NCBI GenBank assembly: GCA_964387115.1
Contig: CAYLVN010000001.1
Location: 1-30,733 of the forward strand
Source: an uncultured Fibrobacter sp.
GTDB taxonomy: Bacteria > Fibrobacterota > Chitinivibrionia > Chitinivibrionales > Chitinispirillaceae
Reading direction: 5' to 3'
Length of the DNA: 30,733 nt
The notes below the pieces were generated by a model. That model was not told where the DNA came from. It ran no database searches and saw nothing but the letters and a program-made list of their open reading frames with translations. This document shows, piece after piece, positions 23,857-30,675 of this stretch. A program made the position numbers and the translations under genes. Within the stretch, counting starts at the first letter, position 1; every line of letters starts with the position of its first letter.

Positions 23857-25368
23857 ATGCCTTTTAAAATCTACCCGGCAGTGGTTTACCTGCTTATTGC
23901 ACTGTTCCCGCTTATTCCGGGAAATCATTGTTCTTTTGGTCAGCAGGGGGCAGCACAAAGTCTGGGGGCTAAGAGCAAGCCTCAGATCTCCGATCCCGGG
24001 CCGCTGAAAAATATCTATAATGAAATTGCTGAAAGGACAATTCCAACTGTGGTTTCTGTAATCCCTACCACTGTCGATACGGTAGAGTATTTCCGCAACC
24101 CCTTTTTTTTCAAGGACACCTCCTCATTTAACTCTTTTGACTATTTCTTTGGAAGAAACCCCAGGGTTGAAAGGCGTGAACATCGTCAGCAGGGGCTTGG
24201 TTCCGGTGTGATCATATCTCCTGAGGGTTACATTTTGACAAATTACCATGTTGTGCAGGGCGCTGAGGAGATCCGGGTGCTCTTGTCCGATGGCCGCAAT
24301 TTCAGTGCAAGGGTGATTGGGGCCGATTCTCTGGCTGATGTTGCTGTGATAAAGTTGAATGAACAAGCAAGTAATCTTCCGGTGGCCTACATAGGAAACA
24401 GCGATTCTCTGCGTCCGGGGGACATTGTGGTTGCAGTTGGAAATCCCTTCAGCTTCACTTCCTCGGTTACAATGGGAATTGTTTCTGCTCTCAACCGTAA
24501 AATCGAGGGCTCGGAGATGTATCAGGATTTTATCCAGACCGATGCTGCAATAAACCCCGGTAATTCCGGTGGGGCTCTGGTAAATATCAGGGGTGAGCTG
24601 GTTGGGATCAATACCATGATTATTACTCCTTCGGGGGCTTTTGCAGGGGTGGGTTTTGCCATTCCGATAAATACTGCCGCAAAAGATGCCCAGAGTTTAA
24701 TAAGATCCGGAACTGTCACCAGAGGCTATATCGGGGTCAATATCCAGGATCTCAATGAGTCTGCTGCTGAAGCGCTGAGGATGAAAAGCACAAGAGGGGC
24801 ACTGGTTTCGGATGTAGTGAGTGGAGAGCCGGCCGACAAGGCGGGTTTGAGGCGGGGTGATGTAGTGATCTCAATTAACGGAAAAGAGGTGGAAAGCGGC
24901 AATGCTCTCAGGAATATTGTGGCCTCTTACAAACCGGGTCAAACCGTTCCACTGACTGTTGTCCGTGAAGGAAAACAGATTAAACTTAACATAAAAATCG
25001 CTGAAAGAAAGTCCACCGGGGTGGTTAAACCCCCCAAACCACATCCGGAACAGGAGAAAAAAGAAGCATTTCTTGGCCTGGAGCTTGCCGATCTCACCTC
25101 TGAGCTAAGGGTTCAGCTCAACATCCCTGAGAGTGTAAATGGAATCGTGGTTACTGGTATCCGCCAGTCAATCACAGATGAACGGACAATGATGAGCAGG
25201 GGAGATTTGATTCAGTTGATAAAAGTGAAAAATGGCACCTTCCAGACCATAAATTCTGTTGAGCAGTTCAGACGTACTGTAGAGAAGATTAAACCCGATG
25301 ATGCAGTGATGCTTCTGGTGATGCGTCGAGCAGAAACATTTTTTGTCTCTTTTAAGGCTGGATCATGA
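23857..25368 (+). CDS. degP: DegP/HtrA (Do family) periplasmic serine protease with two PDZ domains
   Basis: GLGSGVII; catalytic triad LTNYHVV, DVAVIK and IQTDAAINPGNSGG; two PDZ domains; AAGGAG RBS. Confidence 0.95.
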   Translation: MPFKIYPAVVYLLIALFPLIPGNHCSFGQQGAAQSLGAKSKPQISDPGPLKNIYNEIAERTIPTVVSVIPTTVDTVEYFRNPFFFKDTSSFNSFDYFFGRNPRVERREHRQQGLGSGVIISPEGYILTNYHVVQGAEEIRVLLSDGRNFSARVIGADSLADVAVIKLNEQASNLPVAYIGNSDSLRPGDIVVAVGNPFSFTSSVTMGIVSALNRKIEGSEMYQDFIQTDAAINPGNSGGALVNIRGELVGINTMIITPSGAFAGVGFAIPINTAAKDAQSLIRSGTVTRGYIGVNIQDLNESAAEALRMKSTRGALVSDVVSGEPADKAGLRRGDVVISINGKEVESGNALRNIVASYKPGQTVPLTVVREGKQIKLNIKIAERKSTGVVKPPKPHPEQEKKEAFLGLELADLTSELRVQLNIPESVNGIVVTGIRQSITDERTMMSRGDLIQLIKVKNGTFQTINSVEQFRRTVEKIKPDDAVMLLVMRRAETFFVSFKAGS

Positions 25369-25475
25369 TCTTTTAACCTGAAAGTCACAAGTTGGGGAGA
25401 GCATAAAACCGTAAGATGTTGAGATGATTGAGGCTTGAAGGCATTGCAGTTTTTATAGTTTATTTTTTTTCATAT

Positions 25476-25535
25476 AATAAGGATAAGACATTAGATAAAT
25501 TTCCAATGTCTTACCCTTATTGTTATTTTTCTTTT
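25476..25535 (+). terminator. long AT-rich hairpin between convergent degP and the queD-like gene, probable terminator
   Basis: aataaggataagacatt / aatgtcttacccttatt pair at 16 of 17 positions with a 12-nt loop, followed by a T-rich tract on the plus strand. Confidence 0.55.
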
Positions 25536-25548
25536 ATCACTTTCCTTA

Positions 25549-25980
25549 CTATAATTCTCTTGAAGCACAATTTAATGAAGAAGAACGAAATTCTATCTTC
25601 TTAATATTCACCTTGTCTTTCAATAATTCATAGAATACTGTACAAAACCATTCGCAAGTAGATGGTCCCTTGCCCACAGATCTCCTGCCTTCAGGAAAAG
25701 ATTTAACCAATTCATGGTTGATAGCTTTTGCAGGTGTTTCAAATTTATTTGTTGTTCCTTTCATTCCTGCCTTCTCATAACCTTGCAGAACTAAATCAAG
25801 CAAAGGGTCACATTCCTGAAAAATTGTTCCATGATGAAAATTATCTGCAACTACCCAGGCTGATTTTTGTGCTTCTTTTACCGGATAAGCATAATTGTGT
25901 TCGTTCAGATCTCCTTCAATTTCTATAGTTAAATAACCCGAGTGCCCATGAAGATAACTTGCTTCTCCTGGATAATTCAT
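25549..25980 (-). pseudogene. queD: 6-carboxytetrahydropterin synthase (QueD/PTPS)-like gene lacking its N-terminus
   Basis: YLHGHSG.LTIEIEG, AW...NFHH...DPLL and YELLKDKVNIKKI match QueD-like proteins. The first strand and the AHR His are missing, and an in-frame TAA lies two codons upstream of the ATG. Confidence 0.55.
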
Positions 25981-26037
25981 GACTTAACTCGTTAAATGGG
26001 ATCTGTGGGTGAGTCCCACTCTTTTTCCCCCTCCGCA

Positions 26038-26975
26038 TCCGGGGACAAACTTCTTTTTTAATTTTTACTAAGCATATTTCTACAATATGCAGTTCAAATT
26101 AAATCTATGGCTACCTTTTTCTGGAATCTCTCTATTGACCCTTTTATAGATTTCGATAGAGTCGGTTTTTAAGAGATATTCTATTAGCTTTGTATGTTTA
26201 ACACTCAAGTCACAAATTCATCTTGAGGGTGAATCATCTCTGGGATGAAGGAGTAGCTTAACTTACCAACTCAAGGATAAATCTCTCTCTCCCATTTGCA
26301 CCTGCACGACCATTTCCGGAGCCGTCTCTTACACCCCATAGATGAATTAGTGACTAAAAATCCAAAGTCTTTATTTCATCTCGAGGGTATAATCTCCGGG
26401 AACGAACAGCTTTTAATTTTTGCTCAACAATTTTCTACAATATGCAGTTCATTTTAAATTAATCGCTCCATTTTTCTGAAATCACCAATTTGAGTTATTA
26501 TGAATTTGATAGAGTCTGCTTTTAAGAAGGTATCCAATTGGTTTGGCCGATTTAACCCCTAAGTCACAATTTCATCTCAGGGGTGAAGTTCGGGGACGCA
26601 CTACTCTTTTAATTCCTGCACAGCAAATTTCTACAATTTGCATTTCTATCTAAATTAATCACTCCCTTTTTCTGCAATCATTCTTTTATGTCTTTTTGAA
26701 ATTTGATAGAGTCTGCTTTTAGAAGGTGTTCAATTGGCTTGGTCAATTTAACATTTAAGCTTAAGTCACAAATTCATCTCTGGGGTGAAATCTCCGAGGA
26801 CGAACTACCTTTTAAATTCCTGGTCAGAATTTTTCTTCAATTTGCAGTTCGATCAAATTTAATGGCTTCTTTTTTCTTCTGGAATCTCTAAAATTTGATA
26901 GAGTCTACTTTTAGAAGGTATTCAATTGGCTTGATCAATTTAACCCCTGACTCACAACTTCATCTCCGGGGTATA
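26038..26975. repeat. tandem array of degenerate ~185-200-bp repeats (4 clear units + 1 diverged unit)
   Basis: Units at about 26038-26233, 26237-26391 (diverged), 26393-26587, 26589-26789 and 26791-26975. Shared blocks include ccggggac.aac, near-identical tttctacaat[at]tgcagttc, ttttctg.aatc and gatagagtc, and tcacaa.ttcatct. Confidence 0.85.
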
Positions 26976-27087
26976 CTCTCAAGGCGTTTTTTCCAGGGGC
27001 AAATTACCCCTGGCTACAGAATTACGCCCCTTCTGGCACAGAAGCTACTACTACACTGCTCTTTTCCCTGCTTGCGACTTGCGGCAT

Positions 27088-28041
27088 TCAACCCGCAACT
27101 CTCAACCCCGCCGCTTCATCAAGCCCCAGTGCAATATTCATATTCTGCACTGCTGCTCCGGATGCTCCCTTACCGAGGTTATCAAACCTGGCCATGACCA
27201 CAATCTGCCCGCCTTTACCAAAGACAAACAGATCCAGCATATTTGTATCATTGCATTTTGTTGGAGAGAGAAATCCCTTGTCAAGGCTCTGTTCAGGATC
27301 AGGAGACATCACTCTTATGAAGGGCTCTCCCTCATAATAGGCAGATACTATACTGTAAACATCCTCAACAGATACACTCTTTTTAAATAGACTGGTATAA
27401 AGCGGAACACTTACCACCATGCCATTGTAAAAATTGCCCACTACCGGAAGAAACAGAGGCGGAGTGGCAAGTGAGGTGTACTTCTGCATCTCAGGAATAT
27501 GCTTATGGCCAAATGTCAATGCATAGTGCCGCGGCCCGCTCAGATCTTCTTTCTGTTCAGGATCCTGGTACTGGGCTATCATCTTCTTTCCACCACCGCT
27601 GTACCCGGTTAACGAATAGCAGATCACCGGATAATCCTCGCCAACAATTCCGCTTTCCCTCAATGGAACAAGTGAAAGTATAAAACCTGTCGCGTGACAT
27701 CCGGGATTAGAGATCCGCATTGCACCCCGCAGAATCTCCCTCTGCCCTTTTTTGAGCTCCGGCATACCATAGGCCCAGTCAGGAGCGGTCCTGAATGCTG
27801 TGCTTGCATCAACGACCTTTGTTTTGGGATTCTTAATCAACGATGCAGACTCTCTTGCTGCCTGATCCGGAAGACAGAAAATCACAGCATCAGCGGCATT
27901 CAAATACTCCGATTTCACACTCACATCTTTTCTCTTATCCGATGGGATTTCCAGCAACTCAATGTCTTTTCTCGGTTTAAGTCTCTCCAGAATCTTAAGC
28001 CCGGTAGTACCTTCCTGACCATCAATGAAAACAATAGACAT
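27088..28041 (-). CDS. argC: N-acetyl-gamma-glutamyl-phosphate reductase (type 2)
   Basis: VFIDGQEGTTGL; FCLPD; DASTAFRT; ISNPGCHATG (catalytic Cys); SGYSGGGK-like LTGYSGGGK; FDNLGKGASGAAVQNMN. Confidence 0.95.
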   Translation of the reverse strand: MSIVFIDGQEGTTGLKILERLKPRKDIELLEIPSDKRKDVSVKSEYLNAADAVIFCLPDQAARESASLIKNPKTKVVDASTAFRTAPDWAYGMPELKKGQREILRGAMRISNPGCHATGFILSLVPLRESGIVGEDYPVICYSLTGYSGGGKKMIAQYQDPEQKEDLSGPRHYALTFGHKHIPEMQKYTSLATPPLFLPVVGNFYNGMVVSVPLYTSLFKKSVSVEDVYSIVSAYYEGEPFIRVMSPDPEQSLDKGFLSPTKCNDTNMLDLFVFGKGGQIVVMARFDNLGKGASGAAVQNMNIALGLDEAAGLRVAG

Positions 28042-28150
28042 AAAACGCCAACTCCGTGTAAAATGTTTAGCATAAAATCATTTTTTACATACCTGTGAGC
28101 AACAGATATGGCAATTTTAAACAAACCTGAGATGGAAATACACAAAATGC

Positions 28151-28179
28151 TTGAACATTTTTACAGTTCGTGTTATATT
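28151..28179 (+). promoter_or_regulatory. putative sigma70 promoter, divergent from argC
   Basis: TTGAAC-N17-TATATT with a TGn extended -10. Confidence 0.5.
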
Positions 28180-28185
28180 ATAAGT

Positions 28186-28273
28186 ACCTCTTATTTTCCT
28201 ATCTGCAAGGCCCTCTTGCAGTTATTTTGGGTGAAGCGGAAGCGCCGGGTTTTATACCCGGCGGTTCTTTTTT
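28186..28273 (+). ncRNA. candidate ~88-nt small RNA (family not recognised)
   Basis: Lies between a predicted promoter and an intrinsic terminator. Internal hairpin ctgcaag/cttgcag; no ATG ORF inside; no plus-strand gene downstream. Confidence 0.4.
28243..28273 (+). terminator. intrinsic terminator
   Basis: cgccgggt-tttat-acccggcg (8-bp GC-rich stem) followed by gttctttttt. Confidence 0.75.
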
Positions 28274-28660
28274 ATACCCCTCTGAATATCTAACTTTTTA
28301 AACCAGAAATCTTAAATTGAGAGCCCTCTTCCCGAAACTGCATACTATTTGTTTATGCCCTCCTTACGGCCAGGCCTCGGAACAGGAACCGAATATTACA
28401 CATAATGGGGCATCGGGGCAATAATCCGAGCCTCGACTATCAAGGAAGGGTCATAGAAACATGCTTAATGAGTGTTCACCACAGAGGCCCAGAGATCACA
28501 GAGAGGAAAATTAGAGTTCGGAAAAACTGATGAAAAGGGCATCTTCTCTTAACTTGTGGCTTGCGACTTTTCCACTTTAATCTACCACCAGTTCGTCAGT
28601 GCAACCACAAAGGCGTTTTAAAAAAGTGATATCTATACCTGCCTGCACAACTGGGGGTTT

Positions 28661-30201: not shown

Positions 30202-30675
30202 GTAGAGTAGACGCGGGTTTTGACGCCGCGCCCCTCGTCGAACCGTACATACAGATTTCCCGTATACGGCTCTCCCATAGACTTCACATACGGTACACGC
30301 AACAAGCTCACGAGATCTATCATAGCGGCACTAAACCCAGATTCCTTAAGTGCTTATAATAGCTCACTCCTTGGGGAGGCCTCATAGGCCGCTGGCTTCG
30401 ACGACACATATGGACGATCAGCCGACACTGTATGTACATGTTCATCTTGCGAAACGCTTTCCGGGGGTATCCGTACCGAAAGTAGTTCGCCCACCCATGT
30501 GATTGCCGGTTTATTTCCTGTATCATATCTGTTACAGGTTTATAGCACATCTTATGGGAGGTCAGGTCCAGTATGGAGTTCCTTTCCCTTTGCTGCGACT
30601 TCGCTGATGGTTCGATATTCAGGTACCGATGCCCCCTGCCTTGCAGATCCTTGTCATACCGGTAGGTGAACCAAT
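30202..30675 (-). mobile_element. group II intron, 5'-truncated remnant (end of IEP plus domains V-VI)
   Basis: Domain V GAGCCGTATACGGGAAATCTGTATGTACGGTTC at 30272-30240. Domain VI ends CTACTCTAC at 30202. The maturase ORF ends 47 nt before domain V. Confidence 0.88.

Follow-up and report, generated by a model that had tools for sequence, protein, structure and literature searches.

The DNA analysed here (the window) is a stretch of 30,733 nucleotides at the beginning of contig CAYLVN010000001.1 (C1), which belongs to the metagenome-assembled genome (MAG) of an uncultured Fibrobacter sp. of the Chitinispirillaceae, Fibrobacterota (GCA_964387115.1; G000). Between a PTPS-family gene and an argC-like semialdehyde dehydrogenase gene, the window contains an array of four direct repeat units of 186 to 202 bp each, at 26036 to 26975 (Table 1). 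Tandem Repeats Finder reported a period of 196 bp with 3.1 copies over 26375 to 26972, and all four full units were recovered both by find_repeats and by nhmmer run with the units' own profile (E = 1e-51 to 1e-57), confirming the tandem repeats of ∼195 bp described in the original prediction. In that description a diverged fifth unit was counted along with four clear ones. The four were recovered, but the supposed fifth turned out to be filler composed of hairpin-repeat copies. Unit 4 carries a 15-nt deletion in the zone that had been called variable, and its last hairpin is degenerate. The lead-ins 5' of the units are conserved but differ among copies: the C-rich lead-in at the left border of the array, in front of unit 1, is also present 5' of a copy on contig C12 (C12_b), and another lead-in is shared by copies on contigs C24 (C24_b) and C250. 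Synteny breaks at the left flank of the array: the other three genomes of the genus, in which argC is conserved, contained nothing matching the DNA of the PTPS-family gene (E ≤ 1e-10). Near the end of the window, on the minus strand, positions 30202 to 30274 matched the catalytic domain of group II introns in Rfam over its full length (RF00029; 52 bits, E = 1e-7).

Table 1. Features of the repeat array and its immediate surroundings (window coordinates)
Feature	Coordinates	Strand	Description
PTPS-family gene	25549–25980	−	Start codon directly adjoins the array's left border
Left border	25981–26035	+	Hairpin-repeat linker remnant (GACTTAACTCGTTAAATGG...), small hairpin, C-rich lead-in
Unit 1	26036–26233	+	End motif 26040–26059; TACAAT 26081–26086; GATAGAGTC block 26155–26170; closing hairpin-repeat core 26204–26233
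Filler (155 bp)	26234–26388		Hairpin-repeat copies: direct 26234–26262, inverted 26329–26358, truncated 26362–26388
Unit 2	26389–26587	+	End motif 26397–26415; TACAAT 26436–26441; GATAGAGTCTGCTTTT 26508–26523; hairpin-repeat core 26558–26587
Unit 3	26588–26789	+	End motif 26591–26610; TACAAT 26632–26637; GATAGAGTCTGCTTTT 26705–26720; hairpin-repeat core 26760–26789
Unit 4	26790–26975	+	End motif 26794–26813; TTCAAT 26836–26841; GATAGAGTCTACTTTT 26897–26912
"Variable" segments	26129–26149 (unit 1), 26484–26503, 26680–26700	+ (unit 1)	Locally decayed block
GC-rich hairpin CCAGGGG..CCCCTGG	26985–27011		Preceded by T6; separates the array from the argC stop codon; identified by reading the sequence
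argC-like semialdehyde dehydrogenase gene	27088–28041	−	Transcribed towards the array

The units proved to be mosaics of smaller modules. Their last ∼27 nt (AGTCACAAATTCAYCTCNGGGGTGAA) are the core of the most abundant repeat of the genome, which occurs in intergenic runs and closes every unit. With the strict pattern T[CT]A[CT]CTCNG[GA]GGTGA, 165 copies of this core were found on 59 contigs, and none in shuffled sequence. The core is thus a high-copy, short, extragenic palindromic repeat of the kind seen in REP/REPIN-RAYT systems, without a GTAG/CGTC tag. Copies are often arranged in tandem runs with periods of 45 or 61 nt and conserved "spacers"; examples in this genome are C70:1-300, C207:4500-4920, C62:3300-3510, C12:11680-11790, C28:10030-10240, and C87:1140-1900. 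Many contigs terminate inside such runs, which explains the fragmentation of MAGs such as this one. The spacing of the runs is CRISPR-like, but the intervening sequence is conserved, and a CRISPR origin was rejected on this ground for the runs of the 27-nt core spaced at 61 nt on other contigs. The array itself is not a CRISPR either, as had been stated from the outset, since the ∼165-bp stretches between its hairpins are mutually homologous. Two further repeats were noted in these genomes. One, of ∼170 bp (L023:6296-6468, equivalent to C12:12296-12468), has at least 35 copies with 79 to 88% identity in the genome of a sister species of the same genus (G003) and is probably a separate MITE-like family; the other, of ∼80 bp (GTCACAAGTTGCAAG-type), lies just after recO (L021:3551-3630, on C15) and has dozens of copies in both genomes.

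At its other end, each unit begins with a second repeated motif of 19 nt (GGGGACGRACTAC and a T-run), for which 38 loose matches were found in the genome versus 1 in shuffled sequence. The complement of this motif begins GTAGTCCGTCCCC (GTAG). The motif alone forms no hairpin; it often occurs, however, as REPIN-like inverted pairs that make up long hairpins (on C7, C173, C407, and C530), with GTAG facing the loop side. The same motif lies ∼75 nt upstream of a RAYT/TIRYT-like Y1 transposase gene, the start of which is cut off at the ends of contigs C587 and C644, and is also located 5' of the Y1 gene on a contig of the sister species (G003:C115). A complete copy of the gene, found in the sister species (L096:1595-2581), encodes a protein of 328 amino acids with a Pfam Y1_Tnp domain (41.8 bits; cut-off, 23), an HUH motif (HYH), and a YIHFNP motif. 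Its best NCBIfam match was the REP-associated tyrosine transposase (REP_Tyr_transpos), at 59 bits and thus below the 80-bit cut-off. Contig C63 of G000 encodes the C-terminal 197 amino acids of this protein, and ∼225 nt downstream the 19-nt motif is found again, in inverted orientation. An inverted repeat flanking a Y1/HUH gene, a hallmark of REP/REPIN-RAYT systems, was therefore shown for the 19-nt motif only, as distinct from the abundant hairpin repeat. The Y1 gene is present at two or more loci in G000 and at three or more in G003, with 89 to 96% identity between copies, and hence, rather than being single copy like a RAYT gene, it behaves like an insertion sequence. In the assembly of this MAG the body of the gene is absent, and just its two ends are present. 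A second RAYT-like gene, single copy and located on C461 (L083:192-1220, minus strand), encodes 342 amino acids (Y1_Tnp, 35.9 bits); it was not clearly flanked by the abundant hairpin repeat, with only weak hairpin-repeat-like sequence upstream.

The resemblance between the unit and the transposase gene extends beyond the motif. Read inwards from the motif, the unit and the 3' flank of the Y1 gene have three collinear blocks in common, namely the 19-nt motif, TCAGCAAA, and GATAGAGTCTGCTTT, the last of which (15 to 16 nt) matches the Y1 3' flank exactly in the units of the window. In the unit, two inserts split these blocks, one of 10 nt and one of ∼75 nt that is A/T-rich and contains a TATAAT-like box; the unit also includes a G·U-rich hairpin. 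Solo copies of the ∼75-nt flank module were found on C44 and C312. Of the categories named in the original prediction, "MITE/REPIN cluster" came closest to this evidence, given the Y1 end motif and the abundant REP-like hairpin. The unit is no classical MITE, however: its 5' motif has no inverted 3' partner, and no target duplication was seen at single-copy loci. Because the unit has the transposase motif at only one of its ends, it cannot be derived from the transposase unit by simple internal deletion, which counts against the reading that we favor below. A different arrangement of the motif was seen on contig JAEZKC010000051.1 from another Fibrobacterota MAG (L107:5870-6636), where a tandem array with a period of ∼242 bp has units composed of an inverted pair of the 19-nt motif plus ∼190 nt, the opposite strand of which reads as a small glycine-rich, membrane-protein-like open reading frame.

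A search of genomes with a profile or covariance model, including inspection of neighboring genes, had been proposed originally, and it did find homologs beyond the locus. With a sequence-only covariance model, 46 genomes of the family were searched. G000 contained 10 full copies at 5 unrelated intergenic loci, i.e., the array on C1, single copies on C15 and C250, and pairs on C24 and C12, besides isolated 5' halves on C316 and C223. Two full copies were present in G003, at one locus orthologous to the C24 pair. In 42 other genomes of the family no full copy turned up; matches in the remaining two genomes of the genus and in one other genus were weak and partial (E of 1e-5 or worse). The neighbors of the copies share nothing: they are housekeeping genes (recO and those for EPSP synthase, an esterase, a thiamine-binding protein, and a glycosyltransferase), besides a CsgG-like gene, and no nuclease, reverse transcriptase, or recombinase gene accompanied the copies in these neighborhoods. 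A scan of public genomes for the motif at the unit start pointed to Chitinispirillaceae/Fibrobacterota MAGs as hosts. Apart from Chitinispirillaceae MAGs, an exact copy of the motif occurred only on a 2.4-kb contig labelled Smithella sp. (JAAZHX010000001.1; L117), which may be mis-binned. Sequencing runs containing the window came from anaerobic digesters, biogas reactors, and wastewater. Six DNA runs from four studies contained every sampled word of the stretch, which suggests conservation of the locus in the field.

In a maximum-likelihood tree, units 2 to 4 grouped together (support, 86/87) and unit 1 joined them weakly. The units of the array are each other's closest relatives, yet their pairwise identity is only 69 to 78%. 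For comparison, the orthologous pairs at the C24 locus and in G003 are 94% identical between the species, and the two members within a pair are 81 to 86% identical. The low identity within the array, set against that of the orthologues, indicates that the local duplications behind the arrays long preceded the separation of the two species and that divergence has continued ever since. Divergence between the orthologous pairs (6%) is lower than that of the neighboring EPSP synthase gene at third codon positions (15%), and the intergenic region upstream of this gene is 94 to 100% identical between the species (98 to 100% outside the pair). Some constraint, or a low local mutation rate, may thus act on the retained pair. 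Three loci could be compared with G003. At argC, all that the sister species retains is the truncated 5' part of a single unit, which is fused to the argC 3' flank with nothing in between. At the C12 locus it has two hairpin repeats in place of the truncated hairpin, two units, and hairpin of G000, and after recO it has no copy, the region being rearranged. Loss of copies in the sister species shows that they are dispensable at several loci. No clean pair of filled and empty sites was found among the three loci, all of which are rearranged or recombined at repeats, so that the exact borders of the element and a target site cannot be defined. Judging from these configurations, gain and loss appear to have proceeded by recombination among flanking hairpin repeats.

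The local units differ most in one segment of ∼20 nt, and some of their indels are multiples of three. These two features had led to the suggestions that the array encodes guide-like RNAs (a scaffold plus a targeting segment) or consists of relics of tandem small-protein genes, both of which we now consider highly improbable. In the four local units the majority-base fraction within the segment is 0.53 to 0.60, compared with 0.7 to 0.97 in the flanking blocks. The segment is therefore poorly conserved locally, as originally described, but this does not hold for the eight copies elsewhere, in which the same columns are conserved (0.70 to 0.84; consensus, TCTCTCTTT.GGGTCTTTTTT). With up to 3 mismatches allowed, the three local segments matched nothing else in the genome; no effector gene lies near the copies, and TnpB (PF07282) had no match in the 91%-complete assembly. 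In IS200/IS605 omega-RNA and guide-RNA systems a TnpB or IscB effector is accompanied by a guide at the element end; here the variable part is internal. Conservation in the other copies, together with the missing genome matches and effector genes, indicates local decay rather than a targeting module, and with folding no better than that of shuffled sequences (see below), the proposed scaffold with a variable guide was abandoned. The notion of relic mini-genes fared no better. That no intact open reading frame spans the array was verified, all six frames being full of stops in all 12 members of the family, and six-frame translation of the 12 aligned copies revealed no shared open frame.

Whether the units act as RNA was judged from their folding, their promoter-like boxes, and transcript data. 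A structured RNA was rejected, as the RNAalifold consensus for the whole unit amounted to −1.8 kcal/mol and the minimum-free-energy z-scores of single sequences were near 0, ranging from −1.6 to +1.1 relative to shuffles. Rfam matched nothing in the array at gathering thresholds and gave only chance-level matches at permissive ones. Two small helices towards the 3' end (TGGYYTGG with YYARGTCA, and the closing hairpin TTCAYC...GGTGAA) retained 90.6% of their pair cells versus 30 to 57% when the partners were slid. Covariation in these two hairpins was not above that of column shuffles, and the sole compensatory change (U-A to C-G) was seen only within the C24/G003 clade. Being rich in G·U pairs, the TGGYYTGG/YYARGTCA helix can form only on the plus strand, whether in RNA or in single-stranded DNA. 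A TATAAT or TACAAT box is found at a fixed position in 11 of the 12 copies, and its retention, together with the lower divergence of the orthologous pair, hints at some constraint on the sequence. A consensus promoter scan did not pick up these boxes; it found no −35 match, and there is no terminator inside the array.

Four metatranscriptome runs were compared with positions 24500 to 28500. In two of them, from one study, RNA contigs with 0 to 1 mismatch were found at 26166 to 26476, 26240 to 26481, 26554 to 26735, and 26737 to 26920, at a depth of 2 to 5, similar to that of argC. Differences of more than 20% among the units make these contigs specific to this locus, and the array is probably transcribed. 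No RNA contigs were seen over 24500 to 25840 (the HtrA and PTPS genes) in any of the four runs. The RNA contigs are strandless and extend across the borders of units, and their starts do not coincide with those predicted from the TATAAT-like boxes. Minus-strand read-through from argC that fades before the PTPS gene explains these data equally as well as promoters within the units, and read-through would be the simplest source of array transcription.

These observations bear on a first rival explanation, namely, that each unit is an independent small-RNA gene with a sigma-70-type promoter (the TATAAT-like box) and an RNA of ∼150 nt ending in a hairpin. The published precedent is NsiR1 of the Nostocales, a single locus conserved across the order that reportedly produces discrete 60-nt RNAs with terminators (Ionescu et al. 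2010, as cited in PMC4030482). The NsiR1 array resembles ours in its direct tandem repeats with a promoter-like box in each, but here the copies are dispersed, restricted to one genus, and without terminators, and their RNA is seen as strandless contigs that cross unit borders. The fixed box, the well-kept helices that fold on the plus strand only, RNA contigs over most of the array and none on the HtrA and PTPS genes, and orthologues that diverge less than synonymous sites would all fit such genes, as would the finding that most copies outside the window face a co-oriented downstream gene. On the other hand, the −10-like boxes stand without a −35 element, without a terminator, and without excess folding energy or covariation; the transcripts run across unit junctions; copies have been lost at 2 to 3 loci in the sister species; and no Rfam family matches. 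We therefore regard independent small-RNA genes as rather unlikely. A more far-reaching version, in which the unit would be a transposase-borne, self-amplifying small-RNA cassette with its own promoter and a plus-strand RNA of ∼150 nt closed by the REP-like hairpin, appears distinctly unlikely. Under this version the Y1 system would spread a family of regulatory RNA genes in the Chitinispirillaceae, and the diverged segment would give the four RNAs different targets.

Modular, non-coding intergenic repeats of 100 to 200 bp with a variable number of internal modules are also known as BOX elements in Streptococcus pneumoniae and as Correia elements in Neisseria; they are often transcribed and sometimes carry promoter-like boxes, and Correia elements in addition have terminal inverted repeats and target duplications. 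The units described here are alike in their modular intergenic character; they have no sequence relation to these elements and lack the inverted ends and target duplications of Correia elements. By comparison with them, the unit might be an exapted cis-regulatory cassette, such as a portable promoter or leader, a terminator, or an insulator. An arrangement of this kind is suggested by the element being upstream of and co-oriented with the next gene at 4 of 6 loci, by the isolated 5' halves upstream of genes on C316 and C223, by the conservation between species of the region before the EPSP synthase gene, and by RNA coverage that ends between the array and the PTPS gene. However, the units in the window point at the 3' end of argC and so cannot drive a gene, six loci are too few for an orientation bias, and the copies on C223 occur in both orientations. 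Such a general regulatory function is unlikely in our view. As in other REP clusters, the array might at most provide, and this is speculative, a hairpin for RNA 3' ends or an insulator between argC and the PTPS gene.

We think it likely that the array is an old, local tandem amplification of a lineage-specific, non-coding mosaic intergenic repeat, similar to a REP/BIME cluster. Besides the motif at one end only, points that weigh against this reading are the want of a clean pair of filled and empty sites, an end motif that forms no hairpin alone, the hints of constraint on the orthologous pair and the TATAAT-like box, and the absence of the body of the transposase gene from the assembly. Tandem BIME-2 arrays have been described, and the enzyme TnpA-REP, which binds single-stranded REPs, cuts at and near them, and joins strands, has been proposed to amplify BIMEs and to insert them beside existing REPs (PMC3333891). 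By analogy, the Y1 protein may have mobilized the unit, and single-strand DNA cleavage and joining by this enzyme would have seeded the module beside hairpin repeats. Tandem copies could then have arisen by unequal recombination, by slippage, or by a rolling-circle-like recombination of the enzyme, and exchange between flanking hairpin repeats would have changed the copy number, which rose here and fell in the sister species.

The REP/BIME clusters and REPtrons of Enterobacteria and Pseudomonas (PMC3333891, PMC3116915) share several traits with the locus: abundant extragenic hairpins in mosaic arrays with conserved linkers, some types being in tandem and varying in copy number by locus, and a RAYT-type Y1/HUH gene with inverted flanking repeats and GTAG/CTAC in the motif. 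In contrast, the units here are direct and ∼195 bp long instead of inverted REP pairs of 30 to 40 bp, the end motif alone forms no hairpin, unlike classical REPs, the transposase is multicopy where a typical RAYT is single copy, and the host belongs to the Fibrobacterota. Since units and hairpins are all direct, the array is not a BIME in the formal sense, although its mosaic, tandem, and locus-variable character is common to both. TIRtrons, or TIRYT families, likewise comprise a tyrosine transposase gene flanked by long inverted repeats (PMC3733652). RAYT genes whose long flanking terminal inverted repeats form repeat families have been described, as have composites of a degenerate REP and an unrelated stem-loop (Di Nocera et al. 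2013, PMC3733652). TIRYT repeats begin with GGGG and are moderately abundant; they occur as single, dimeric, or clustered copies (PMC3733652). The motif found here, GGGGACGG, has one mismatch to the published consensus GGGGWSAS, and the unit adds the ∼75-nt insert and a second, unrelated hairpin repeat.

The locus provides a worked example of how a tandem repeat that looks like a guide array can be a mosaic of repeat modules in decay. Annotators should label the region repeat DNA and neither a gene nor a CRISPR-like locus. In the REP/BIME/TIRYT literature cited here we found no prior description of such systems in Fibrobacterota, and our results extend the REP/BIME-type repeats associated with Y1 transposases to this phylum, in Chitinispirillaceae of anaerobic digesters.
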